From an uncultured virus (IMG/VR IMGVR_UViG_3300021142_001411) (taxonomy: Duplodnaviria; Heunggongvirae; Uroviricota; Caudoviricetes), in IMG/VR virus record IMGVR_UViG_3300021142_001411: a stretch of DNA of 64,000 nucleotides, one strand, 5' to 3'. Positions within the stretch are counted from its first letter, which is position 1; the number at the start of each line of letters is the position of its first letter. The notes under the pieces were generated by a model. That model saw only the letters and a list, made by a program, of their open reading frames with translations. It had not been told where the DNA came from and did no database searches. Of the stretch, positions 1 through 12,454 are shown in pieces. Made by a program: the position numbers and the translations under genes.

Positions 1-64
1 AGTTGGTTCGAACCACTGACCTAAAGGTTATGAGCCTTCCGAGCTACCGCTGCTCTACCCCGCA
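1..64 (-). tRNA. tRNA-Met(CAT), initiator-like D arm; 3' end cut by window edge
   Basis: Reverse complement GCGGGGTAGAGCAGCGGTAGCTCG-GAAGG CTCATAA CCTTT-AGGTC-AGTGGTTCGAACC. Confidence 0.85.
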
Positions 65-72
65 ATCTCTAT

Positions 73-522
73 TTATGTAAAACTATTAATTATTTCTTTA
101 ACAGTATTTGCATCTGACATACCAGGAAAAGATTTATTAAATAATCCAATTGCTTTTCCAATTTTCTTATTAATATTGGATTCATCACTTAAAGAATCCA
201 ATATCTTTTTTATTTCAATTTCCATTTCTTCTTTTGTTAAAGGTTTTGGCATATATTTTTCCAAAACTAACATTTCATTTTTTTCATTTTCAGACAAATC
301 TAAACGATTACCTTTGATGAATTCATCATAAGATTGTTTTCTTTGTTTGATACAATTTGAAATTACCTTCAAAATACTTTCTTCAGTTAATTCTTGATTA
401 GAATTTAACTTTTCTGATTCAGTAATTTTTGATTTTAAACTACTCAAAGCATTTTTTGTTACTTGATCTTTTGCTTTCATTGCAACAACAAAATCATTTT
501 GTATTTGTTCTTTTAATTTCAT
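73..522 (-). CDS. GatB/YqeY domain protein
   Basis: MKLKEQIQNDFVVAMKAKD...IKQRKQSYDEF..GNRLDL..E..VLEKYMP is typical of YqeY. Confidence 0.9.
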   Translation of the reverse strand: MKLKEQIQNDFVVAMKAKDQVTKNALSSLKSKITESEKLNSNQELTEESILKVISNCIKQRKQSYDEFIKGNRLDLSENEKNEMLVLEKYMPKPLTKEEMEIEIKKILDSLSDESNINKKIGKAIGLFNKSFPGMSDANTVKEIINSFT

Positions 523-589
523 TTCTTTATGTTTTTTAATTTAACAATGCAAATATAGATAAAAATTTTTAAATAAAAAAAAATATTTG

Positions 590-747
590 TTCCGTAACCA
601 GGAATCGAACCTGGGATCTCCGCCACATGCACGGCGGTGAGATTTAGCCTTTCTTCACTTGATATGAGTAACTTTTGTTTTTGCGTTGCTCACCGCTCGA
701 ACATATAAACTCATTCATCCGATTTGCTTCCACTTCTCTACTACGGG
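590..747 (-). tRNA. tRNA-like gene with 92-nt D-loop and 8-nt anticodon loop (identity uncertain, possibly CAT)
   Basis: Acceptor CCCGTAG/TTACGGA, D stem GAGA/TCTC, anticodon stem CCGCC/GGCGG, T arm CCAGG-TTCGATT-CCTGG. Confidence 0.7.
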
Positions 748-757
748 AAAGTTATAG

Positions 758-830
758 TTGCTACGTCTGGGAATCGAACCCAGTTATTTTGGCTTATGAG
801 ACCAACGAAATACCTTACCTCCCACCAGCT
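758..830 (-). tRNA. tRNA (CAT; Met or Ile2), imperfect acceptor stem
   Basis: TTGGT CTCATAA GCCAA anticodon arm; CTGGG TTCGATT CCCAG T arm. Confidence 0.7.
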
Positions 831-843
831 ATTTATTGTACTT

Positions 844-920
844 TGGTAGCGTATATTGGATTTGAACCAATGAATGTATCCTTATGAGAGATATGTGTTC
901 GACCACTTCACCAATACGCC
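844..920 (-). tRNA. tRNA (CAT; Met or Ile2) with encoded CCA
   Basis: GGCGTAT/ATACGCT-A-CCA; TATCT CTCATAA GGATA; ATTGG TTCAAAT CCAAT. Confidence 0.9.
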
Positions 921-1000
921 AAAAGAGCCCCGATATTTTCATAAGTACTTAATCTTCATTTACCTGGCTCGGGGCCACACTGGTAAATTACTTCCTTACT

Positions 1001-1094
1001 TTGCGGAGAAGATAGGACTCGAACCTACACACCAGCTCATCACCGATGACCCGTTTTCAAGACGAGGCCGATACCAATTTCGGTTTACTTCTCC
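1001..1094 (-). tRNA. tRNA-Ser(TGA)
   Basis: GGAGAAG/CTTCTCC-G; CTCGT CTTGAAA ACGGG; long variable arm; GTAGG TTCGAGT CCTAT. Confidence 0.9.
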
Positions 1095-1122
1095 ATTAAA
1101 ACAAATACAAAAAAGTCCAAAA

Positions 1123-1200
1123 GGGTGATTAACCAGGTATGATCTGGCACTCTTCTGCTCCACAAACAGACGCTTTAATTCCATTTAAGCGATAACCACC
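1123..1200 (-). tRNA. tRNA-His(GTG)
   Basis: G-1 plus GTGGTTA/TAATCAC-C; TCTGT TTGTGGA GCAGA; atypical T loop ATCATAC. Confidence 0.8.
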
Positions 1201-1211
1201 ATGTATATATG

Positions 1212-1359
1212 TGTTGATAATGGGATTTGAACCCACAAGTTGGTGACTAAATCAACAATTATTTTCATTGTCATCTGGTTTACTAAAACAGGAAATCCAT
1301 AAATGGTCCAAATATTTTCCTCAAACAGTAATCATGTTTACCAATTCCATCACATCAAC
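1212..1359 (-). tRNA. Leu-type tRNA body with a 65-nt insertion in place of the anticodon loop
   Basis: GTTGATG/TATCAAC-A; Leu-like D arm TGATGGAATTGGTAAACAT; long variable arm; GTGGG TTCAAAT CCCAT; anticodon stem ATTA/TAAT encloses 1263-1327. Confidence 0.7.
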
Positions 1360-1453
1360 AATATAAAAAATAAACATTGCTATCAGGGTTTAAATGTCGC
1401 TCGGAATGACTTACTGACACCAACTGATTTTACAGTTTCTTAGTTTATTTTTT

Positions 1454-1536
1454 TGAGGCCAAGGTCAGATTCGAACTGACGTGTTTAATATATCGGGTTT
1501 GCAATCCGACCTCTTCAACCACTCGAGCACTTGACC
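1454..1536 (-). tRNA. tRNA-Cys(GCA), enlarged variable loop
   Basis: GGTCAAG/CTTGGCC-T; TCGGA TTGCAAA CCCGA; GTCAG TTCGAAT CTGAC. Confidence 0.85.
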
Positions 1537-1549
1537 ATGTTTTTTTTAG

Positions 1550-1623
1550 AAGTCTCAGAGGGATTTGAACCCATCAACCTCTCGTTTCGTAGACGAGTGC
1601 TCTTCCAATTGAGCTATGAGACC
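1550..1623 (-). tRNA. tRNA-Arg(ACG)
   Basis: GGTCTCA/TGAGACT; CTCGT CTACGAA ACGAG. Confidence 0.9.
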
Positions 1624-1626
1624 AAT

Positions 1627-1710
1627 TGCACACCACACCCGACTCGAACAGGTATTGAGAAACTCTCACGATTTTGGAGATCGCTGCATTACCAATTATG
1701 CTAGTGATGT
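1627..1710 (-). tRNA. tRNA-Trp(CCA) with a paired variable arm
   Basis: ACATCAC/GTGGTGT-G; GCGAT CTCCAAA ATCGT; variable GAGA-GTT-TCTC-AAT; ACCTG TTCGAGT CGGGT. Confidence 0.85.
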
Positions 1711-1790
1711 GTTTTTATTTTATTTCTTGTAATTGTTTTCTTAAATCTTGAATTTTTGTTAAGTAACCTGATACTGATATTTCAGCAGTG

Positions 1791-1982
1791 TTAGATATTT
1801 TTTGTTTCAGATTTGTTTTCATTTCTTCTTTTTTTATATAAATGATAATCAAATCCTACTTCATTACATAATTTTTTTATTTTTTCACAATTTCTATATT
1901 TATCATCATTATATAATTTTCTAGCACCATCATTTAATGATACACAATTATTTAAAAAATTTAAAATTTCATCTTTATTCAT
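1791..1982 (-). CDS. Short hypothetical protein (probable start MNKDEIL), possibly a truncated endonuclease N-terminus
   Basis: ATG 1982 preceded by a TATTTAT motif; the longer ORF-track start overlaps tRNA-Phe. Confidence 0.4.
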   Translation of the reverse strand: MNKDEILNFLNNCVSLNDGARKLYNDDKYRNCEKIKKLCNEVGFDYHLYKKRRNENKSETKNI

Positions 1983-2042
1983 ATAAATAAATATATGAAA
2001 ATGTGGTTTAAATGTAAATGGAACCACAATAAAAAAAATTTT

Positions 2043-2118
2043 TGTGTCAACAACCAGATTCGAACTGGTAACTACTAGGTGCTTCAAACCTAAGCTCTAC
2101 CATTGGAGCTATGTTGAC
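2043..2118 (-). tRNA. tRNA-Phe(GAA)
   Basis: GTCAACA/TGTTGAC-A; TAGGT TTGAAGC ACCTA; ACCAG TTCGAAT CTGGT. Confidence 0.9.
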
Positions 2119-2165
2119 ATTTTTATCCATATTTCAAAGAACATATATCGTTTCCGATTGTTCAG

Positions 2166-2196
2166 CAAAGATAATAATATTTTTGATTCTACCAAA
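2166..2196 (-). promoter_or_regulatory. Bacteroidota sigma-A-type promoter (internal to tRNA array)
   Basis: TTTG - 19 nt - TATCTTTG, matching the -33 TTTG / -7 TAnnTTTG consensus. Confidence 0.7.
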
Positions 2197-2203
2197 TTTA
2201 TTT

Positions 2204-2971
2204 TTATTGAATATTTTTATTATATTTTTTATCCCACATTTCTATTCGTTCTAATAATTGATTGTATGTTAAAATAGATTTTTTGTTTTTAGAAACATTT
2301 TCATTATGTATCATTAATTTACAATTTGCCGGATGTGATAATAATTTAGGATTAATACCTTTATTAAAACCATCTTTAACTGATAACATATGATCCCTAC
2401 TTACACCACTTAAATTATTACCTCTATTTTTAGGTTTATACCAACCATATTTTTCAATTAACGAAAAATCAAATTCATTTGGATAATCATTCAAACTAAA
2501 TTTAAAATTGGTTTCTTGTTTATATTTGGCAAATTCAGTCATATCTTTTTGATTGTTTTGTTTTTTACAATTATCTGAACAAAATTTTTTACGTATTTTT
2601 TTTTCTATTAGAATATCACAATTTTTACATTTAATAGTTTTATTTACTAATTTATTCTTATGTGATATAGACATTCTTTTTTTTGTTTCATTTGTAACTA
2701 CTCTACCTATATTAGTAAATGAAGTGGAACATGACTGAGAACAAAATGAATTTCTTCTTTTTTCGTAACTTAAAATTTTATTACATTTTGGATTTAAACA
2801 AAATTTTAATTTTTTTTCATAAAGTTCTTTTGTTTTTTCAGTTAACCCATTGCCATTTTTACTATAATCTCTTAAATTTTTATTTACATGATAATTTCTA
2901 CATTTAAAAGAACAATAAATTCTATTGTTTTCAATTTCTTTGTTACACTCAATATTTTTACATTTATTCAT
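2204..2971 (-). CDS. Putative homing endonuclease (CxxC..CSxxC repeats, NUMOD3-like segment, HNH-like C-terminus)
   Basis: Three C-x2/4-C...CSxxC motifs; TNETKKRMSISHK; SRDHM...HPANC...EN. Confidence 0.65.
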   Translation of the reverse strand: MNKCKNIECNKEIENNRIYCSFKCRNYHVNKNLRDYSKNGNGLTEKTKELYEKKLKFCLNPKCNKILSYEKRRNSFCSQSCSTSFTNIGRVVTNETKKRMSISHKNKLVNKTIKCKNCDILIEKKIRKKFCSDNCKKQNNQKDMTEFAKYKQETNFKFSLNDYPNEFDFSLIEKYGWYKPKNRGNNLSGVSRDHMLSVKDGFNKGINPKLLSHPANCKLMIHNENVSKNKKSILTYNQLLERIEMWDKKYNKNIQ

Positions 2972-3025
2972 ATTTATAAATATTAATAAAATGGAAAAAA
3001 GTAAAGACGAATTAAAAACAATTTA

Positions 3026-3103
3026 GTGGAAGTTACGGTGAACGATACCGTCTGATTTCCGCATTGCAAGTGCGGTGACCACACCAATGCAGTCCCAACC
3101 CCC
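3026..3103 (-). tRNA. tRNA-Ala(TGC)
   Basis: GGGGGTT/AACTTCC-A with G3:U70; CCGCA CTTGCAA TGCGG; atypical T loop. Confidence 0.85.
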
Positions 3104-3183
3104 ATTTAATTCCCCATATTTCAAAGATCAGATGCTCATCCACTAGAGCTTCACCCCCATTTTTTTTAAAGAACTATATAAAC

Positions 3184-3215
3184 AAAAAAACCTCGGAAGG
3201 TTATTCCGAGGTTTT
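3184..3215 (-). terminator. Intrinsic terminator (attenuator) upstream of the tRNA array
   Basis: AAAACCTCGGAA-TAACC-TTCCGAGG followed by T7 on the minus strand. Confidence 0.85.
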
Positions 3216-3239
3216 CACTTATAATGTTAAAATTAAAAT

Positions 3240-3341
3240 TTAACTTAAATCAGTATCAACAACTCGGAACATAATAATATCACGCTCATCCGCCCATTTT
3301 GAACAGATTGTAAACGACATCGTATGTTTGAATTGTTTCAT
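3240..3341 (-). CDS. Putative 33-aa leader peptide MKQFKHTMSFTICSKWADERDIIMFRVVDTDLS
   Basis: Hand-translated; lies between a promoter and the terminator and carries TGTTCCGAG complementary to the terminator 5' arm. Confidence 0.65.
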   Translation of the reverse strand: MKQFKHTMSFTICSKWADERDIIMFRVVDTDLS

Positions 3342-3403
3342 TGAAATTCTTTTATTTTTTTTACTTTATAATACCTCAGATACTATTTTCTCCGATTGTA
3401 TTG

Positions 3404-3435
3404 CAAATATAGATATAAATATTGGAATAAACAAG
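3404..3435 (-). promoter_or_regulatory. Bacteroidota sigma-A-type promoter of leader/tRNA array
   Basis: CTTG - 20 nt - TATATTTG. Confidence 0.7.
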
Positions 3436-3563
3436 AAAAGTTCAAAGTTTTTTAAAAATATTTTTTTTTATTTTATTTTTCCATATTTTTTTAAGATGTT
3501 TATATTGTGAAATTAAAAGATTAATAATTCAATCTTTTCTGAATTTTTAATATATTTATTAAT

Positions 3564-4370
3564 ATGAAAAAAACATTTTTATATATTAAAGAAACGCCAT
3601 TAGGATTAAAATATTTAGGTAAAACAACACAAGATCCTTACACATATAAAGGTAGTGGTATATATTGGAATAATCATTTGAAAAAAAATAATTTTACAAT
3701 AAATGACATAAAAACTACGATACTACTTGAAACCACAGATCGTAATGAATTAAAAGAAATGGGATTATATTATAGTGAGTTATATAATGTTGTAGACAAT
3801 AAAAAGTGGGCAAATTTAAAACCTGAAATTGGTGATGGTGGAAGTGGTAAAATGAAAGATGAGGTTAAAGAAAAAATAAAAAAAACAATGAAAGGTAAAA
3901 AATTAATATGGTCTGAGGAAACAATTAAAAAAAGAAATGAAAAATTAAAAGGTAGAAAAATGCCACCATGTTCAGAGGAAACTAAATTAAAAATAAGTTT
4001 GGCCAATAAACTATGGGAACATAAACCATTAACTGAAGAAACAAAAAGAAAAATTTCTGAATCAAATAAAGGTAAAATAGTCTCTAATGAGACTAAAATA
4101 AAAATCTCAATTAAACGAAAAGGAAAAAAACATACAGAAGAAACAAAAAACAAACTTTCAGAAGTTAATAAAGGTAAAATTGTTAGTGAAACAACAAAAA
4201 TAAAAATGTCAAAAAATAAAAATAATGTCAAAAAAGTATTGGATGTTAAAACAAATTTTATATATGATACAATTAAGGATGCTGCCAATTCAATAAATAT
4301 GAAACACACTACATTATGTGCAATGTTAAGAGGACAAAATAAAAATAAAACAAATTTAATATATTTATAA
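3564..4370 (+). CDS. GIY-YIG homing endonuclease with NUMOD3 repeats and C-terminal NUMOD1/HTH
   Basis: FLYIKE...KYLGKT, YKGSG; repeated (S/T)EETKxKIS. Confidence 0.85.
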   Translation: MKKTFLYIKETPLGLKYLGKTTQDPYTYKGSGIYWNNHLKKNNFTINDIKTTILLETTDRNELKEMGLYYSELYNVVDNKKWANLKPEIGDGGSGKMKDEVKEKIKKTMKGKKLIWSEETIKKRNEKLKGRKMPPCSEETKLKISLANKLWEHKPLTEETKRKISESNKGKIVSNETKIKISIKRKGKKHTEETKNKLSEVNKGKIVSETTKIKMSKNKNNVKKVLDVKTNFIYDTIKDAANSINMKHTTLCAMLRGQNKNKTNLIYL

Positions 4371-4382
4371 TAAAATAAAATT

Positions 4383-4658
4383 ATGTCAGAAAATTTAAGT
4401 TTTAAATCGTGGATTCAGGATCTCTTCAAAGATGAGAGAGGTTCTACATCAATTAAACCGGTTGTTGCTTTGATTGGTGCTCTTTTCTTATGTGGAACAA
4501 TGTTAGCTAATTCATTTAGTGCTGAGAATATCAAACCATCAAATGATTTGGTTAATGCTGTAATGGTAATTACTGCAATTGGTATGGGTGCAGATACTTT
4601 GGATAAGTTCTCATCAAAAAAGAAAGATGAATCTACTGACACACCACCAGTAAATTAA
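4383..4658 (+). CDS. Small two-TM membrane protein (holin-like, unproven)
   Basis: Two hydrophobic segments and a charged C-terminal tail. Confidence 0.55.
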   Translation: MSENLSFKSWIQDLFKDERGSTSIKPVVALIGALFLCGTMLANSFSAENIKPSNDLVNAVMVITAIGMGADTLDKFSSKKKDESTDTPPVN

Positions 4659-4686
4659 AAAAGGGGAGAATTAATTCTCCCCTTTT
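4657..4686. terminator. Bidirectional intrinsic terminator
   Basis: AAAAGGGGAGAA-TTAA-TTCTCCCCTTTT between convergent genes. Confidence 0.8.
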
Positions 4687-4994
4687 ATTTTTATTAATTG
4701 ATTATGTAAATCTCTTATTTCAGTACATTTTTCAAATAATTCATTTTGTTGATAATATGGTAAAAGATCATCTATAAGAATGTTTATTTTCATCTTATCA
4801 AATTTAAATTCAGTGTCCCATTCAAGATTTTGAATTTTTGCCCTAACTAATAAATTAACATTCTCAATAGATATATCTTCAAGTTGTTTAAAACATTCGA
4901 TGATTTCATTATATATTTTTTCAATATTATTATCATAGAAGTCTTTAAAATCTCCATGGTTTTCATCAATGGTTATTGTTTTTTCAAAATTCAT
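4671..4994 (-). CDS. Hypothetical protein
   Basis: Tightly packed in the operon downstream of the RNA repair genes. Confidence 0.6.
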   Translation of the reverse strand: MNFEKTITIDENHGDFKDFYDNNIEKIYNEIIECFKQLEDISIENVNLLVRAKIQNLEWDTEFKFDKMKINILIDDLLPYYQQNELFEKCTEIRDLHNQLIKIKGEN

Positions 4995-4995
4995 T

Positions 4996-5469
4996 TTAAT
5001 CTTTTATTGTATGTTTTATCTGTACTCTTATACAGGTTTGAGGTTTTCTACAATTTTTAAAGAAATTATTAACGAAACCAATGATATTTCCAGCACCGAT
5101 TGGATTTGCGGAATGTGTATAAACTGTTGGAAAAACAAATTTTTGGAATGGATTATCAATAAACACACCTTCTTCTGTTGGATGCGGTATTTGTAATCTA
5201 TTTTCAAAATAATAATTTATCAACCATTTTGCACAATCAAGACCGGTTTTTTCTTTAATATTATCATAATTAAGTGTATAATTCGGACCAACATTGTTAA
5301 AATATTCTTCCATTGCGGTATCACCTAAATCATGATCCAAAGAAATTATTTCAATATTATTCAAACCAATTTCTTTTATTTTTTCAACAAACTCATCATA
5401 GTTTCTTACTACAATCCAACCTTCTTCTGTGGGGGTTCTCACATCATCTAAATAAATTTTATTCATCAA
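4996..5469 (-). CDS. Cyclic-phosphate-processing receiver-domain protein
   Basis: KIYLDDVRTP...ISLDHDLG...TGLDCAKWL...HSANPIG. Confidence 0.75.
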   Translation of the reverse strand: MMNKIYLDDVRTPTEEGWIVVRNYDEFVEKIKEIGLNNIEIISLDHDLGDTAMEEYFNNVGPNYTLNYDNIKEKTGLDCAKWLINYYFENRLQIPHPTEEGVFIDNPFQKFVFPTVYTHSANPIGAGNIIGFVNNFFKNCRKPQTCIRVQIKHTIKD

Positions 5470-6559
5470 TATTATTTTTAAACGGTTTTGAATATTTTGG
5501 GTATATATAATCCCATATTATGTTATCATAATTTTGTCTATCATACATTTTAAACAAAATTGGTCTTAAATGTTTTTCTTGCATTAAAACCCATTCTGCG
5601 TATGTTTTTCTTATTGGTAATTCTCCATCATAAGATTCGTAGATATTATCAAACAATTTACCAGCATATTCTTTTATTGAATGGAAATTATATCTCAAAT
5701 CTCTAACAGTATCTTTCACCCATTTATAGAAGTCATCTGGTACTTTTTCCAATATTTCATCTAATGGTTTATCTTCTTTCAAATATTCCCATAAATCACG
5801 ATTAGAGATGTTTGTTAATATTCTATGTAATCTACAATATTCATCACCCTTTATCTTCATTCTAAAACCATTCTTAAAACGAATAACAAATCCTTCTGCA
5901 TCATTTGATATAATTAATTTTAATTTATCAAAATCATTGAATCCGTCATATTTTTTAACAATCTTAAAACCTAAATTTGTCATTAGGTTTTTGAATCTTA
6001 TACCACCATCATAATCTTCATCGTTATAAAGATTTATTTCTTCACCTGTTTTAGTTTCGATAATTCCAAGTAATATTAAATCTTCGTAATCGTAATTACA
6101 AACAATTTTATTTTCAGGATATATGATTTCAAATAGATAAGTGTGACCTTTTGGTAGTCTATTATAATCGTATTCCTTTAATAGTTCAGTACCTTTGATT
6201 GATTGTTCTGAAGTAAATGAACCACGAGTAGATAATACCCATTCGTCTTTATAATTAAATAAAATACCCAATGAACCATCCATTTTTTCAAACACTTCAA
6301 ATGATTCGTTTGGTATTATTTCTGGTGATATTTCCAAATATTCTTCATAGTTGAAGAACTTATTAAATGGACGAGCGATAATGTCACCATCTGAATTTGT
6401 TACAAGTCCACGGCATTGTCTTGTCACATCATCCCATAAACGATCATATTGGACTTTTGGTGAATAATTCCATGTAGTCAAATCCAGAACTGGATGAGTT
6501 TGTTTTAATAACAAACCATCATTGTGGTATTTTTCTAATAATTCAGTTGTAATTAACAT
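5459..6559 (-). CDS. RNA ligase, T4 Rnl1-like (probable start MLITTE)
   Basis: QCRGLV, ARPFNKFFNY, motif I EKMDGSL, STRGSF, FEII, EGFV, KIK. Confidence 0.9.
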   Translation of the reverse strand: MLITTELLEKYHNDGLLLKQTHPVLDLTTWNYSPKVQYDRLWDDVTRQCRGLVTNSDGDIIARPFNKFFNYEEYLEISPEIIPNESFEVFEKMDGSLGILFNYKDEWVLSTRGSFTSEQSIKGTELLKEYDYNRLPKGHTYLFEIIYPENKIVCNYDYEDLILLGIIETKTGEEINLYNDEDYDGGIRFKNLMTNLGFKIVKKYDGFNDFDKLKLIISNDAEGFVIRFKNGFRMKIKGDEYCRLHRILTNISNRDLWEYLKEDKPLDEILEKVPDDFYKWVKDTVRDLRYNFHSIKEYAGKLFDNIYESYDGELPIRKTYAEWVLMQEKHLRPILFKMYDRQNYDNIIWDYIYPKYSKPFKNNIDE

Positions 6560-6615
6560 TATTTTTTTATTTAAGTTTTCAAATATAGTTGTAATATTTG
6601 AAACTACCAAATAAA

Positions 6616-7038
6616 TTACAACTTTACCTCAAAACGGTTACGCATTTTTTCTATTGTTTCATCAGGTACATTGTGTTCGTTAACACCACCATGACGATTT
6701 TCTACAATTACAGAATGAACTCTATAATTATATCTTTCTGCCATTTCATAATATGTTTTCATTTCCCATTCTTGAGTGAATGTATTGGAAACAACAATTT
6801 TTGAAAGTTCATTTTTCATTTTATTTGCACATCTAACTTGACAATCGTTATGTGCTTCTTTTATTTTTGTTGCATCAAAATTATAATTACCTTTTTCATC
6901 CATGAAATAATCATCGGCAGATAAAACATCAGTTGTATCGCTAGTCATCCATTTTAATATAACATGTCCTAATGTTGTTTTCCCGCTACCTGGTATTCCT
7001 CTTAATAATATTAAGTCTCCTTTGAATTTATTTTCCAT
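6616..7038 (-). CDS. P-loop polynucleotide-kinase-like protein
   Basis: LLRGIPGSGKTT, SADDYF, VSNTF, HNVPDETIEKM. Confidence 0.85.
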   Translation of the reverse strand: MENKFKGDLILLRGIPGSGKTTLGHVILKWMTSDTTDVLSADDYFMDEKGNYNFDATKIKEAHNDCQVRCANKMKNELSKIVVSNTFTQEWEMKTYYEMAERYNYRVHSVIVENRHGGVNEHNVPDETIEKMRNRFEVKL

Positions 7039-7060
7039 GTTCTTTTATAAATAAATAGTT

Positions 7061-7096
7061 AAAAAAATTGGGGTCAAATTAATGACCCCGTTTTTT
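7061..7096. terminator. Intrinsic terminator hairpin
   Basis: GGGGTCA-AATTAA-TGACCCC flanked by A and T runs. Confidence 0.7.
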
Positions 7097-7259
7097 ACTT
7101 CTTGATGATAGTATCAGGTGTGTGAGTTGAATCACTTGTTTTAATACTATCAACCTTTACAGTTGTTGAGTCTGTTGTTCCATTTGTGGTTGACCCAGTT
7201 CCACATGCAGTCATTGCAACGGTTGCAATAAGAGCAATTACTAAAATAATTTTATTCAT
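7095..7259 (-). CDS. Small lipoprotein (54 aa), missed by the ORF track
   Basis: MNKIILVIALIATVAMTA-C-GTGSTTNGTTDSTTVKVDSIKTSDSTHTPDTIIKK; lipobox; own TTTG..TATATTTG promoter at 7264-7295. Confidence 0.8.
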   Translation of the reverse strand: MNKIILVIALIATVAMTACGTGSTTNGTTDSTTVKVDSIKTSDSTHTPDTIIKK

Positions 7260-7295
7260 AGTGCAAATATAAATAAAATATTCTATACTTCCAAA

Positions 7296-8516
7296 TTATT
7301 TTTTGGAGATGGTTAATTTGTCTGTTTTATAACGTATTGTTATTTGACCATCTTCAATAACATTACCTCTTAAAATTTCTTCACTCAAGAAGTCTTCGCA
7401 AAGGTTTTGTATGATCCTTTTGATTGGTCTTGCACCATATTCTTCTTGGGTATTTAATTCAAAAATCTTATTTGTTACACTTTCATCAAATTTAATTTTA
7501 TAACCCTTTTCTTTCAAACGATCATTTAATTTATTCAATTCGATAGAAATAATTGATTTGATTGTTTCATCATTCAATGGATTGAATAATATTAAATCAT
7601 CAATACGATTTAAGAATTCAGGTTTGAATTGTTGTTTCAATGATTTTTGAATCATTGTTTTTCTAACCTCATATCCTTGTTTTTCACTAGTGGCAGTTTT
7701 AAACCCTACACCACCACCAAAATCAGATACTTTCTTTGCCCCAACATTTGATGTCATGATAATGATGGTATTTGTGAAATTAACTTTTCTTCCAAAAGAA
7801 TCTGTCAAATGACCTTCATCTAATATCTGAAGAAGTAAATTAAACACATCAGGGTGAGCTTTCTCAATTTCATCAAATAATATAACTGAGAATGGGTTGT
7901 TTTTAACTTTTTCTGTTAATTGACCACCTTCATCATATCCAACATATCCGGGAGGAGAACCAATTAGTTTTGATACATTGTGTTTTTCCATAAATTCCGT
8001 CATATCAATCCTTATCATTTTATTTGGATCACCAAATAATATTTCCGCAATTGATTTTGCCAGATATGTGTTATGTGATAATATACCATTAGTATAATAC
8101 CTTCTATTAGAACCTTCTATTAATTCAAGGTCATACATAATTTCCTCATAACCTAAATTAGATATTTCTAACACTTCAGATTCAATCAATTTACCATCAT
8201 TATCCGATACCATCACAAATGAACCAAATTTTAAGTCTTTAACAAATACTTCGGTTAAACCAATTGGTTCAAATGTAGTTTCATCATAATCAATAAGAAA
8301 AATAATATGATTATCTGCACATTTAAGTTCTTTGCCGTCTTTTAATTTAAGATGATAAACTTCGTATGGTATTGTTTCATGAAGGGATTCTATATCAACA
8401 AACCCATCATCAGTTAAAACTTCATACTCACTAATTTTAGTTGTTTTAGTGATCTTTTTTAATGAATCAAGTTCATTTTTTACAATTAAGTTGTTTAATT
8501 TTTCTTTTTTTATCAT
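7296..8516 (-). CDS. clpC: ClpC-type ATPase, C-terminal fragment (C-intein + AAA2/D2)
   Basis: After ILSHN: TYLAKSIAE, RIDMTEF, LIGSPPGYVGY, LFDEIEKAHPDV, FKPEFLNRID, YGARPIKR. Confidence 0.9.
   Translation of the reverse strand: MIKKEKLNNLIVKNELDSLKKITKTTKISEYEVLTDDGFVDIESLHETIPYEVYHLKLKDGKELKCADNHIIFLIDYDETTFEPIGLTEVFVKDLKFGSFVMVSDNDGKLIESEVLEISNLGYEEIMYDLELIEGSNRRYYTNGILSHNTYLAKSIAEILFGDPNKMIRIDMTEFMEKHNVSKLIGSPPGYVGYDEGGQLTEKVKNNPFSVILFDEIEKAHPDVFNLLLQILDEGHLTDSFGRKVNFTNTIIIMTSNVGAKKVSDFGGGVGFKTATSEKQGYEVRKTMIQKSLKQQFKPEFLNRIDDLILFNPLNDETIKSIISIELNKLNDRLKEKGYKIKFDESVTNKIFELNTQEEYGARPIKRIIQNLCEDFLSEEILRGNVIEDGQITIRYKTDKLTISKK
8070..8516 (-). mobile_element. Split intein, C-part (149 aa) of ClpC
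   Basis: VLTDDGF, block B LKCADNH, block F MYDLE, block G YYTNGILSHN|T. Confidence 0.9.
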
Positions 8517-8542
8517 TTGTTTAATTTTTTACAAATATACGT

Positions 8543-9760
8543 TTATTTTTTTAAAAATAATAAACATTTTTTTAATACTTCTTCTTTATTACCCCATCTA
8601 TATTCGGAATCCCATATAACTAAAACATCAAACCCATTTTGTTTTGCACAATTTAATTTTAATTCATCTTTATCCCACATCTCTTGTGCTGTAATGGTTT
8701 TTATAAACGGATGTGGATAATCATCAGCTTTATATTTATTTGGATTTCCATGAAACATATCACCATGAAATTCAATTATCCGTTTATTTTTAATATCGGT
8801 AAAATCATATAACCAAACACCACCTTCTTTTTTAGTTAATTTAAACTCACTATTATGTGTTGCGAAATGAACTTTATCCCTATTACTAATATCATATGTT
8901 TCTAAAATTTTATAGAACAAATCTTGAGATATTTTAGAATATCCAATAACTATATTACCATTGGTTAATAACGATTTTAACCATTTATTTTGTCTTTCAG
9001 TAAAACGTTTTTTACCTTCTTCTTCACCATACTTTGCAATGCATTTTTCAAGACTAAAAGTTGACTGATGTTCTGATACATTTTGTTTTGCATCTTCTTT
9101 TGAATAACCTTTATTAACCCAATATTCTATATTGGATGGAATTAGTCTTTTTTCAAAATCAACTTGTTTCGCAGATTCAGTTTGGTTTTTACTAATAATG
9201 TCTTTTGCCTCATTTTCAGAACACCCCTTATTAACCCAGAATTCAGAATTTGTTGGTGTTAAACAAATACGTTTTATTTCTTCTTCGGTGTAACCTTTAT
9301 CAGCTAACATTTTTTTAGATTTACCATGATAAGTTTTAACACATTTAGATGATTTTTGTTGCTGTTTAGATATTTCTTTATTAGCTTCTTCTATAGAATA
9401 ACCCTTATTTATCCAATATTCCTTACATAAACGATTCCTTTGTTTTAATTCTTCATTACGTTTATCCAATTCAACCAAAGCGTCTTTATCATTCCAACCA
9501 CGTTCAATCCAATATCCTAATTCTCCCCATTTTTTAGTTTTAAAACCATAATTTTTAACCAACCAACCACGCATTAACGATAACGAAACAACACCTTCTT
9601 GTTCTTGTAATTTAATTATTAATGATTCCATTTCTTTTTTAATCGTTTCATTATCGTAGCGTATGTTTTTATCTAATTTTAAAACATGGTCTTTAAACGT
9701 TTCTAAATCTGGAAACACTTCAGTCACTTCTTTAATTCCTTTACTTGTTTTTATCTTCAT
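8543..9760 (-). CDS. Vsr-like endonuclease between ClpC split-intein halves
   Basis: YDF..IIEFHGDMFHGNP...MWDKD...GFDVLVIWDSE; N-terminal YW(I/V)NKGYSxEEA repeats. Confidence 0.8.
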   Translation of the reverse strand: MKIKTSKGIKEVTEVFPDLETFKDHVLKLDKNIRYDNETIKKEMESLIIKLQEQEGVVSLSLMRGWLVKNYGFKTKKWGELGYWIERGWNDKDALVELDKRNEELKQRNRLCKEYWINKGYSIEEANKEISKQQQKSSKCVKTYHGKSKKMLADKGYTEEEIKRICLTPTNSEFWVNKGCSENEAKDIISKNQTESAKQVDFEKRLIPSNIEYWVNKGYSKEDAKQNVSEHQSTFSLEKCIAKYGEEEGKKRFTERQNKWLKSLLTNGNIVIGYSKISQDLFYKILETYDISNRDKVHFATHNSEFKLTKKEGGVWLYDFTDIKNKRIIEFHGDMFHGNPNKYKADDYPHPFIKTITAQEMWDKDELKLNCAKQNGFDVLVIWDSEYRWGNKEEVLKKCLLFLKK

Positions 9761-9806
9761 GACATATATTTTATAATAAATATCATGAAGTTTTAAAAAG
9801 TTAGGA

Positions 9807-11144
9807 CTAATTGGTGTCGGGTACTATATTTTTTATATCAATCGTTTTTATCTCACCAGTTACTTTGTTTCTAACAGTTATTTTTGTATCACCACAAATA
9901 CACTTACCAACACCAGTAGAACCTAAGAACATAAATGAACCGATTGGTTTATTTGTATCTTTAATTCCCACTCTATTTCTTCTGATAGATTTTGCAATTA
10001 TTGAAATTGCTTCTTCTTGACCGATAACTTTCTTATTAAGAATTTCTTCCATCTTTAAAAGTTTTTCAGTTTCCTTATTGTCAAGTTTTGCAATCGGAAC
10101 ACCGGTCATTTCTGTTATGATATGATAAACATCATCAACTGAAATTACTTTTTTATTTAATTTACATTCTTCCTCAAATTTGGCTTTGATTTCAATTATT
10201 TTATTTGCCAATTTCTTTCCTTCATCTCTCAATCTTGCTGCATCTTCAAAATTCTGACTTCTTACAACCAATTTCTTTTGCTCATTGATTTTTTCAATTT
10301 CAGCATTAATTTTATCAACTTCTTCTGGTAGTTTTGTTGAGATCTTCTTTTCAGAACCCAATTCATCCATGATATCAATTGATTTATCAGGGAATTGTCT
10401 ATCTGTAATAAATCTACCAGACAATTTAACAATGGTTTCTATAACATTATCATTATATGATACCATATGGAAATTCTCATAAGAAGTTTTTAAGTTCTTT
10501 AAGATTTCTATTGTTTCCAATTCTGTTGGTTCATTAAGAATAATCTTTTGGAATCTTCTTACCAAAGCAGAATCTTTTTCGATATGTTTTTTATATTCAT
10601 CGAAAGTCGTTGCTCCGATGCATTGTATTTCACCACGTGCCAAAGCGGGTTTAAGGATATTTGCTGCATCCATTGCACCACTTGCATTACCAGCACCTAC
10701 CATTGTATGTAATTCATCAATGAATACAATAACGTTGGTAACACCTTCCAATTCATTTAAGATTGCTTTAATACGTTCTTCAAATTGTCCTCTGTATTTT
10801 GTACCAGCAACTAATGAGGTTAAATCCAAGGACATGATTCTTTTATCTAATAGATTAGAAGGACAATCACCTTTATATATCATTAGTGCAAGTTTTTCAA
10901 CTAATGCAGATTTACCAACACCCGCATCACCAACAATAACTGCATTGTTCTTCTTCTTACGAGATAGAATTTGTGCAATACGTTTAACTTCTAAATCTCT
11001 ACCTATAATAGGGTCAATCTTTCCTTCCTCTGCCAACTTAACAAGGTCTCTGGAAAAATTATCCAAAATAGGTGTGTTTGAACCCTTCTTAGTTTTTTTA
11101 GGGTTAGTGGGTTGTTGACCCTCTTCGTAATAATCTACTGACAT
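9807..11144 (-). CDS. clpC: ClpC-type ATPase, N-terminal fragment (AAA1, UVR-like linker, start of AAA2, N-intein)
   Basis: LDNFSRDL, GDAGVGKS, AGTKYRGQFEER, FIDELH, LKPALARG, FLGSTGVGK|C; likely start MSVDYY. Confidence 0.92.
   Translation of the reverse strand: MSVDYYEEGQQPTNPKKTKKGSNTPILDNFSRDLVKLAEEGKIDPIIGRDLEVKRIAQILSRKKKNNAVIVGDAGVGKSALVEKLALMIYKGDCPSNLLDKRIMSLDLTSLVAGTKYRGQFEERIKAILNELEGVTNVIVFIDELHTMVGAGNASGAMDAANILKPALARGEIQCIGATTFDEYKKHIEKDSALVRRFQKIILNEPTELETIEILKNLKTSYENFHMVSYNDNVIETIVKLSGRFITDRQFPDKSIDIMDELGSEKKISTKLPEEVDKINAEIEKINEQKKLVVRSQNFEDAARLRDEGKKLANKIIEIKAKFEEECKLNKKVISVDDVYHIITEMTGVPIAKLDNKETEKLLKMEEILNKKVIGQEEAISIIAKSIRRNRVGIKDTNKPIGSFMFLGSTGVGKCICGDTKITVRNKVTGEIKTIDIKNIVPDTN
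9810..9902 (-). mobile_element. Split intein, short N-part (31 aa) of ClpC
   Basis: CICGDTKITVRNKVTGEIKTIDIKNIVPDTN directly follows the Walker A lysine. Confidence 0.88.
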
Positions 11145-11297
11145 AATTAAAATTTTATTTGTGCAAACATAACCCAAAAAATAATCCAAACAAAATATTT
11201 TTTTATTTTTGTCAAATTGTCAAACATATATGTCAAAAAGTCCATTTTTTTTATTTGGTATTTAAATTGATAATTTATGAGAAAAAATTAATAAATT

Positions 11298-11669
11298 ATG
11301 TTAACAAGAATCAGAAGTCCATTTTTTGACACATTAGAGTCAATTTTAGAACAAACTAACTTCAATGAGAGAAGTTATAATTCCTCAATAACTAATGTAA
11401 CAGAGGATAATTATCAGGTTTTAGTATCAGTTCCCGGTTTATCTAAGGATGATATTAAAATCACGATTAAGGATGGTTTATTAACCGTTTCTTATGATAA
11501 ACCAAAGGAAAGTAAAAATCCATTTGTTGGATCATTTAAGAAGACATTCTCATTACCGGAGGATGGGGATGAGGGTAATATTACTGGAAAGGTCGAGAAC
11601 GGGGTGGTGGAAATTTCAATTCCTAAAGTTCAGAAAAAATCCACAGAACGTATAATTGTGGTTAAATAA
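11298..11669 (+). CDS. Hsp20 small heat-shock protein
   Basis: VPGLSKDDIKI, SFKKTFSLP, VENGVVEISIPK. Confidence 0.92.
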   Translation: MLTRIRSPFFDTLESILEQTNFNERSYNSSITNVTEDNYQVLVSVPGLSKDDIKITIKDGLLTVSYDKPKESKNPFVGSFKKTFSLPEDGDEGNITGKVENGVVEISIPKVQKKSTERIIVVK

Positions 11670-11734
11670 GTTAAAACCCTCAATAAAATGATGGTTTTTT
11701 TTATTTAATGGGATATTTATATAAAAAAATATTA

Positions 11735-12454
11735 ATGAAAAAATCTGCATTGAATGAGGAAATAGTTAGAATCAAGAGTATGATGTCTAAACTAATGAAT
11801 GAACAAAGTACACCTAATCCAACTATAGTAAAAAATTTGGGTAATATATTAAAATCAGTTCAAAGTAATAATGGTGTTATAAAAGACCCTAATAGTATGT
11901 ATAATGGTCAATCAATTGTGGATCTTTATAACAATAATACATTATCTGATGCTGATTTTAAAGCTGCATTAGAATATAATAAAACTGGTACAATACCGAC
12001 AACTACTTCAACACAAACAGCTCAAACAGAACCACAAGAAAAAGGTTATAATTATAAAGTTAAGACAATTGCAAAATGGTTAAAAACTGTTGGTGATACT
12101 AATGGAGTAATTAAAGACCCAACTAGTATTTACAATGGTAAGTCATTATATGATCTTATGAATAATGATAAGTCTTTTGCGGATGCTGTTTCAACTGCAT
12201 CAGATTATAATAAAACAGGAAATATTACCCCATATAATTCACCTGAACCTGAAACAATATATCAAGTAAGTGATAGAATTAAAGAAATTGCAGGATGGTT
12301 AAAAACAAATCCAGATGGTACTATGATAAGTGGTCCATTTAAAGGTCAGACATTCCAAGAAATGTTAGGTTCACCTAATCGTCCTTCTGGTGCTGAATTA
12401 AATGCCGCAAGTAAATATAATGAGTTAATAAAAAAAAGTAACATTAAAAATTAA
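11735..12454 (+). CDS. Hypothetical protein with internal repeats and LNEEIxRIKSMM N-terminus
   Basis: Repeats NGVIKDP.S.YNG.S..DL.NN...A..YNKTG. Confidence 0.6.
   Translation: MKKSALNEEIVRIKSMMSKLMNEQSTPNPTIVKNLGNILKSVQSNNGVIKDPNSMYNGQSIVDLYNNNTLSDADFKAALEYNKTGTIPTTTSTQTAQTEPQEKGYNYKVKTIAKWLKTVGDTNGVIKDPTSIYNGKSLYDLMNNDKSFADAVSTASDYNKTGNITPYNSPEPETIYQVSDRIKEIAGWLKTNPDGTMISGPFKGQTFQEMLGSPNRPSGAELNAASKYNELIKKSNIKN

Follow-up and report, generated by a model that had tools for sequence, protein, structure and literature searches.

Engineered tRNA scaffolds consist of a tRNA body bearing extra folded RNA, and over-long tRNA genes of phages are usually dropped by annotation or called introns. 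Two stable RNAs of bacteriophage T4, RNA C (species 1, 139 nt; rnaC) and RNA D (species 2, 119 nt; rnaD), have roles that are stated to be unknown in PMC3014915 and PMC9697503. Like the gene described here, these are RNAs of 120-150 nt located in a phage tRNA cluster, and RNA C shares with it a canonical T arm, an acceptor-like stem and long hairpins where the anticodon arm belongs. There is no sequence match to our gene (T4 is absent from the hits at E ≤ 1) and, unlike it, RNA C has no U8, no Leu-type D loop and a mismatched acceptor stem. The T4 RNAs have been shown to be expressed, whereas the present gene is known from its sequence and from contigs that are possibly DNA. The "enigmatic" short tRNA introns of the Lak megaphages (10.1101/356790) are, also like our gene, found as over-long tRNA genes in very large phages of Bacteroidota (a predicted host in our case) and are not group I. 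They were defined by the tRNA predicted after one excision, in the case of Thr(TGT) also by intron-less relatives, and in the available text of that source their splicing is never shown; Lak over-long tRNA genes are also treated in PMC8346664. Our gene differs from them in that one excision fails, the nearest intact gene being two gaps and two edits away. Finally, aptamer fusions in the V loop (PMC5397188) likewise combine a tRNA body with extra folded RNA, but those were engineered with a working anticodon arm, while the gene studied here is natural and lacks one.

The window (the whole stretch of 64,000 nucleotides analysed here) makes up the first 64 kb of a virus record of 74.9 kb (27.6% G+C). 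The phage carries T4-like capsid, portal, terminase and PolB genes, several of them with inteins. Its bS21 gene is encoded on the reverse strand and sits between the portal and prohead protease genes. The same bS21 layout is described for freshwater phages of 293-331 kb with predicted Bacteroidetes hosts (PMC9723584), and it is by this layout match only that the host is predicted to belong to the Bacteroidota. All 7 runs containing at least half of the sampled words were freshwater or lake metagenomes. A second record of the phage, G001 (162 kb, estimated 52% complete), into which the tRNA array extends, is 99.97% identical to the window over 3148 nt.

The gene has 148 nt and lies on the minus strand, from G1 at 1359 to the discriminator A73 at 1212, with no encoded CCA (Table 1). 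Its neighbours in a minus-strand tRNA array are tRNA-Cys (1455-1536) and tRNA-His (1123-1199), both called by ARAGORN, which at default settings passed over the gene itself; Rfam recognised no more than the 3' 45 nt as tRNA, and with a score under the gathering threshold. An assembly chimera, one part of the condition under which the first-pass annotation would have withdrawn its proposal, is ruled out because contigs of the DNA runs X1 and X6 (540-1546) and X13 (1141-1384) run through the gene, with G001 nearly identical, although any of the four may share a sequencing campaign or source with the window. In the scan for promoters, 17 matches were obtained against 18.6 expected, which is the chance level.

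Table 1. Coordinates of the tRNA-like gene, its parts and the repair-type module in the window
Feature	Position	Strand	Basis or remark
Whole tRNA-like gene	1212..1359	-	sequence and constrained fold
Acceptor stem, 5' strand	1353..1359	-	7/7 pairs with 1219-1213
U8, G9 and Leu-type D arm (A14, A15, G18, G19, A20a; A10-U25)	1334..1352	-	sequence
Putative 41-nt insertion preceding the former anticodon arm; predicted pairing covers the UAG of the remnant	1292..1332	-	repeat; pairing P 0.75-0.99
Predicted long hairpin in the place of the anticodon arm, two 6-bp helices around a 4x4 internal loop	1280..1331	-	constrained fold; stability z -0.89
Remnant Leu(UAG) anticodon arm, UAG at 1285-1283	1275..1291	-	edit distance 2 to the intact L019 arm; not canonical 5-bp/7-nt
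Enlarged variable region, 38 nt, with predicted 6-bp hairpin 1272-1254 and U48 at its end (1237)	1237..1274	-	fold, sequence
T arm with canonical loop (U54, U55, C56, A58)	1220..1236	-	sequence
Acceptor stem, 3' strand, and A73	1212..1219	-	strain variant at 1219: G7.U66 to G7-C66 in X1 and X15
Cyclic-phosphate-processing REC protein (PF20274), T4 Rnl1-type RNA ligase (PF09511) and AAA_33 P-loop protein (PF13671)	4996..7038	-	Pfam

The body of the gene is that of a class II tRNA-Leu, with a 7-bp acceptor stem that includes G7.U66, a Leu-type D arm proper at 1350-1334 and a 5-bp T arm with the conserved bases, the stem of which includes G49.U65. The earlier reading of a Leu-type shell with acceptor, D arm, T arm and A73 therefore stands, with the addition that it runs on the minus strand, which had been left unstated. 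What is absent from the gene is a 5-bp anticodon stem starting at position 27 with a 7-nt loop containing U33. All the leucine determinants of E. coli listed in PMC9976931 are present in the sequence (A73, U8:A14, A15:U48, G18G19, A20a, G18:U55, G19-C56 and U54:A58), in line with the proposal of an aminoacylatable mimic, and in the same source a tRNA-Leu without its anticodon arm is still charged. On these bases the unspliced transcript is likely to be leucylated by the host LeuRS. The C2-G71 antideterminant against SerRS is missing, with U2-A71 in its place. Two other kinds of tRNA-like RNA do not correspond to the gene, namely tmRNA, which is marked by a G3.U70 alanine identity and a tag ORF (our gene has U3-A70, and ARAGORN found no tmRNA in the window), and the allo-tRNAs, with an 8/4 or 9/3 acceptor branch (PMC5389517) where our gene has 7/5.

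Between the D arm and the T arm there are 97 nt (1333-1237). When acceptor, D and T arms were held and the rest left free, the preferred fold of this centre was a hairpin at 1331-1280 (P 0.75-0.99) followed by a second one at 1272-1254. The first-pass annotation had placed a 65-nt insert in the loop of an anticodon stem ATTA/TAAT, but under the shell constraint this stem has a pairing probability of 0.000, and imposing it makes the ensemble 7.5 kcal/mol less favourable, so the centre is better described as a replaced anticodon arm plus an enlarged variable region. The AGGAAA/TTTCCT helix that it had proposed does form (1321-1316 with 1295-1290, P 0.76-0.99), as part of the long hairpin; the CCAT-TT-ATGG hairpin is impossible with its 2-nt loop, and a 3-bp version reaches P ~0.2. 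Compared with dinucleotide shuffles the folding energy of the centre gives z -0.05, the 65 nt of the earlier proposal z +1.47 and the hairpin 1331-1280 z -0.89. Because no part folds better than shuffles, the structure of the centre is a prediction that carries no energetic sign of selection. Folding both strands without constraint was uninformative (z -0.45 and -0.10). The spacer between tRNA-Cys and the gene (1360-1454, minus strand) also folds into a closed multi-stem structure of -16.5 kcal/mol, calculated with no null, and is partly covered by both RNA-library contigs described below.

One possible interpretation of such a gene is a short intron of the Lak type, in which an unknown endonuclease would cut and the Rnl1-type ligase of the phage would rejoin the halves to give a decoding tRNA. 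We applied a strict test, in which one contiguous deletion must yield a canonical anticodon arm. It was positive in 19 of 73 long Leu-type shells (see below) versus 2.6 expected from shuffles and is therefore able to detect introns, but in our gene no single excision produced a canonical arm. A relaxed rule does allow a 60-nt excision within 1327-1264, which speaks for an intron; the 7-nt loop that it leaves contains C32 and U33 and carries an anticodon for Tyr, Phe or Asn, and the stem is one pair short. Such products arise in 221 of 400 shuffles, they duplicate Tyr, Phe and Asn genes that the phage has in intact form (G001 array), and across the non-restorable shells the relaxed rule succeeds in 17 of 54 versus 17.6 expected. 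They also need the ATTA/TAAT stem, with P close to 0 in the precursor. Registers resembling a bulge-helix-bulge number 3, compared to a null mean of 2.8, and 93% of shuffles have at least one. An Asn(GTT) with a 67-nt intron is reported by ARAGORN in intron mode at a lowered threshold only, and was rejected, since -ps80 gives 135 genes in the contig.

Group I self-splicing introns have a catalytic core and a length of ~200 nt or more. The centre has 97 nt, and no Rfam intron family was matched at E ≤ 1 over 1-12000. The two RNA-library runs agree weakly with the absence of splicing: each has contigs of the phage within 540-2200 only over the centre in its unspliced form (1221-1469 and 1247-1424), with no splice joint, at a depth of 2.2-2.6 and extending 65-110 nt beyond the 5' end, although these contigs may be DNA, and similarly short pieces are present in the DNA runs X11 and X13. 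A strain without the centre was not found in 8 runs, the nearest related contig (L327) stopping before the slot. In favour of an intron one can also cite the short tRNA introns of the Lak phages, including one in Tyr(GTA) (10.1101/356790), clean intron cases in other phages, and the tRNA repair-type module with ligase and end-healing-type genes, 3.6-5.7 kb upstream of the gene. We give the module as context only, implying no action on the gene, and the ligase has a known alternative role in the repair of cleaved tRNA (PMC10264068). Taken together, we regard an intron as very unlikely here, and with it this half of the earlier proposal, the strict test being negative, the relaxed product at chance level and its anticodons already provided by other genes.

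Some of the restorable genes are of interest in themselves. Eight of the 19 have an inner segment ending in CCA just 5' of the 3' exon, and three of the 19 are intact arms with long variable regions and not introns. Eight loci (L024, L060, L091, L074, L270, L280, L302 and L320) are tRNA-Leu(UAA) genes with clean anticodon-loop introns of 47-51 nt, which one excision restores. By eye these introns look like minihelices, with an acceptor-like stem and a T-like arm, and end in CCA, which suggests excision by RNase P and 3' processing followed by religation. Our phage itself has a tRNA-Leu(UAA) split by a 945-nt intron (L407 11064-12096, minus strand, in G001); the ORF inside appears HNH-like by eye, and the intron has no Rfam intron match at the gathering score. 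At L407 1758-1829 (minus strand, G001) there is also a tRNA with a CUA anticodon, of the amber suppressor type; TAG is the stop of only 1 of the 44 long ORFs counted in G000.

The origin of the gene can be approached through the segment 1275-1291, which appears to be what is left of a Leu(UAG) anticodon arm. Its edit distance of 2 to the closest of 24 Leu arms of the ordinary set was equalled by 0 of 500 dinucleotide shuffles (6 of 500 reached 3), in a test that was post hoc, designed after the match had been noticed by eye. Among the 54 non-restorable shells the window copy alone comes within 2 of a Leu arm. The owner of the best-matching arm, L019, belongs to a phage whose major capsid protein is related to that of ours (40% identity), and it also ranks first of 39 ordinary tRNAs at the shell positions not fixed by the search pattern (20 of 32, versus 19 for the next). 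Arm and shell agree, the shell ranking by a margin of one base, and the likely ancestor, as judged from sequence, is a class II tRNA-Leu(UAG) like L019. With such phage genes (L019 and L040) ours shares the D arm, the T stem, the identity bases and the anticodon arm, here a remnant; it differs in its acceptor sequence, in the 41-nt insertion before the arm, in the damaged and predicted sequestered arm, and in the 38-nt variable region.

The 41-nt segment opens with a direct repeat of the remnant arm that matches it at 11 of 13 positions (1328 versus 1291), a degree of repetition reached by 8 of 150 shuffles, which suggests that the insertion is a partial duplication of the anticodon arm. The repeat also explains the heptamer resembling a Leu(GAG) loop that had been pointed out earlier. 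Loop-like it is, at 1324-1318, but it is not a probable ancestral anticodon: its register is off by 3 nt, it lacks a partner strand, and a GAG loop is not restored by any deletion. A Leu(GAG) ancestry was consequently rejected as improbable but not outright, since an ordinary Leu(GAG) with the same acceptor 5' strand as our gene exists (L219). In the predicted fold the UAG of the remnant is paired (P 0.94-0.99), and imposing the remnant arm makes the ensemble 5.3 kcal/mol less favourable; resistance to nucleases is plausible because this UAG is predicted to be paired. A motif shared by the centre and L039, noticed by eye, was unsupported by alignment.

The same data can be read in terms of a pseudogene, that is, a redundant tRNA-Leu(UAG) replaced by a class I-like Leu(UAG), inactivated by insertions and now decaying, with its shell intact because the event is recent. 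The phage does have a separate intact Leu(UAG) of ~75 nt in the same array, with a class I-like body and no long variable arm, and CUA accounts for only 82 of 1594 Leu codons in the long ORFs of G000. Redundancy, the two edits in the remnant arm, a centre with neither homologue nor excess folding energy, and the G.U pairs at 7.66 and 49.65 (the latter G-C in L019), which could be early decay, all fit this picture. Against it, the gene would have gained ~60 nt and been hit twice in the arm, yet no stem pair of the acceptor, D and T arms and no conserved base of the shell is broken, and the sole shell polymorphism (1219; X1 and X15) preserves its pair, turning G7.U66 into G7-C66. The centre is invariant in X1 and X6 while tRNA-His and tRNA-Cys vary, a difference that is not significant (0 of 19 differences in 97 of 1007 nt). 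Furthermore, intact shells of this pattern, together with compensatory changes, recur in dozens of phages unrelated to one another. We judge decay to be rather unlikely and prefer a maintained, unspliced tRNA mimic.

These other phages came from the IMG/VR collection, where Leu-type D-loop and T-loop pairs at long spacing were found at ≥120 loci (mostly two tandem tRNAs) in one collection and at 82 in another. Requiring at least 6 of 7 acceptor pairs and at least 4 of 5 T-stem pairs left 117 distinct shells, comprising 39 canonical ones, 73 of at least 105 nt and 5 intermediate; the long set ranges up to ~165 nt and a few of its rows may be mis-delimited (e.g., L027, with an inner T arm). The one-deletion test splits it into the intron-like cases (19/73) and a larger, maintained group that is non-restorable (54/73), to which our gene belongs. 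When long elements were picked by their D- and T-loop motifs and nothing else, 57 of 63 had 7 of 7 acceptor pairs. Within the non-restorable group, 52 of 54 have U48 (the T fraction in the centres is 0.26) and 50 of 54 a Watson-Crick pair 10-25, over 48 different acceptor sequences. A73 is present in only 39 of the 54, whereas all 39 ordinary shells have it, and leucine identity is therefore not class-wide.

The centres are much more diverse, forming 46 clusters of which 41 are singletons, ours among them. Outside this phage no homologue of our centre was found when viral, metagenome and genome collections were searched with exact and with degenerate patterns, by blastn of 50,697 phage records, at 80 loci around related RNA ligases, or among the best 30 blastn-short matches against 1.74 Mb of collected loci. 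Shells with the same acceptor 5' strand (90, 99, 121, 129 and 164 nt) share it by construction of the search pattern and were not counted as orthologues, and a swapped centre in the X15 contig was dismissed, the match stopping at 1250 with only 4 unaligned bases, too few. In one family, of 6 members, both sides have changed at 10 of the 20 predicted pairs, in related sequences and with kinship ignored. A literature search that left most subscription journals and the bioRxiv supplements (including Lak Table S6) uncovered found no paper on the non-restorable class, and the word "intron" is not in the main text of PMC7162821. Tandem pairs of long shells (L410/L223 and L405) have the same acceptor 5' strand and unrelated centres.

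A natural tRNA scaffold is another way to look at these shells, the tRNA body providing processing and stability and the hairpins of the centre being a working cargo that binds a protein or an RNA. It is illustrated by a family of non-restorable shells of 125-128 nt (L256, L266, L296, L309, L251, L322 and L324) whose conserved centre is a hairpin plus an A-rich stretch and whose acceptor, T and inner stems show compensatory changes; in L256/L266/L296/L309 and in L251/L322/L324 the centre is conserved while the acceptor stems change. No Rfam family besides tRNA was detected in the two members scanned. Further arguments are that an ordinary tRNA was present in the flank examined for only 14 of the 54 non-restorable shells, and that E. 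coli tolerates a large aptamer in a tRNA variable loop (PMC5397188). For the window copy, whose centre is a singleton, apparently built from the old anticodon arm and not unusually stable, a cargo seems unlikely.

The explanation that we favour, with a probability of about 0.4, is that the gene encodes an unspliced, probably leucylatable and non-decoding tRNA mimic, most likely a decoy. The shell and its leucine identity bases are intact and no single excision yields a canonical arm. From the statistics above, a class II tRNA-Leu(UAG) of the L019 type would have acquired the 41-nt insertion, an apparent partial duplication of its arm, together with an expanded variable arm; by prediction the insertion covers the old UAG through pairing, which would leave no anticodon loop open to ribosomes or anticodon nucleases. 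Up to this point, and with a maintained shell, we consider the scheme probable. If established tRNA biology applies, the gene would then be co-transcribed with the array, processed by RNase P and 3' trimming, provided with CCA by the host and charged by LeuRS. No CCA-adding enzyme (PF01743) was found in the 3 partial records, which as fragments are uninformative on the whole phage. In the weakest step, selection would act on the shell and not on the centre. This is compatible with a decoy for defence toxins or sensors that bind tRNA, the targets being host factors that would grip it by its acceptor end and elbow. A job in tRNA mimicry is the most likely because the shell is the part that is kept. 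Host tRNases have been reported to exert pressure on phage tRNAs (PMC10264068), with which a decoy for tRNA-gripping defence factors would fit. The whole chain, including the decoy role, is a tentative proposal, with somewhat less than even chances.

If the decoy reading is true, it would represent an RNA-based counter-defence. What seems particular to the window copy is a traceable likely ancestor and the predicted masking of its anticodon, and this makes it a concrete construct for the function of anticodon-less phage tRNA-like RNAs, a question that dates from T4 RNA C and D. More speculatively, and we think this improbable, anticodon-less phage tRNA mimics could be a widespread, unannotated anti-defence class. 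Our gene would then illustrate how a member arises, with a duplicated strand folding back to cage the anticodon of its own tRNA and so giving a chargeable, nuclease-proof decoy, a mechanism that may also explain T4 RNA C.

Other unusual sequences were seen in the same region of the window, all on the minus strand. A second over-long tRNA-like gene of the array, 158 nt long (589-748), has a folded insert of ~70 nt within its D loop and a mismatch at C1.A72; its anticodon stem is rich in G+C and closes a loop of 8 nt. At ~3020-3105 there is a tRNA-like sequence with an atypical T loop that was missed by both ARAGORN and Rfam. In the strains of X1 and X6 the tRNA-Cys region (1455-1546) shows differences that include a two-sided change at the anticodon-stem pair 31-39, and upstream these strains have other DNA, which in X6 amounts to 2493 letters in place of 265.
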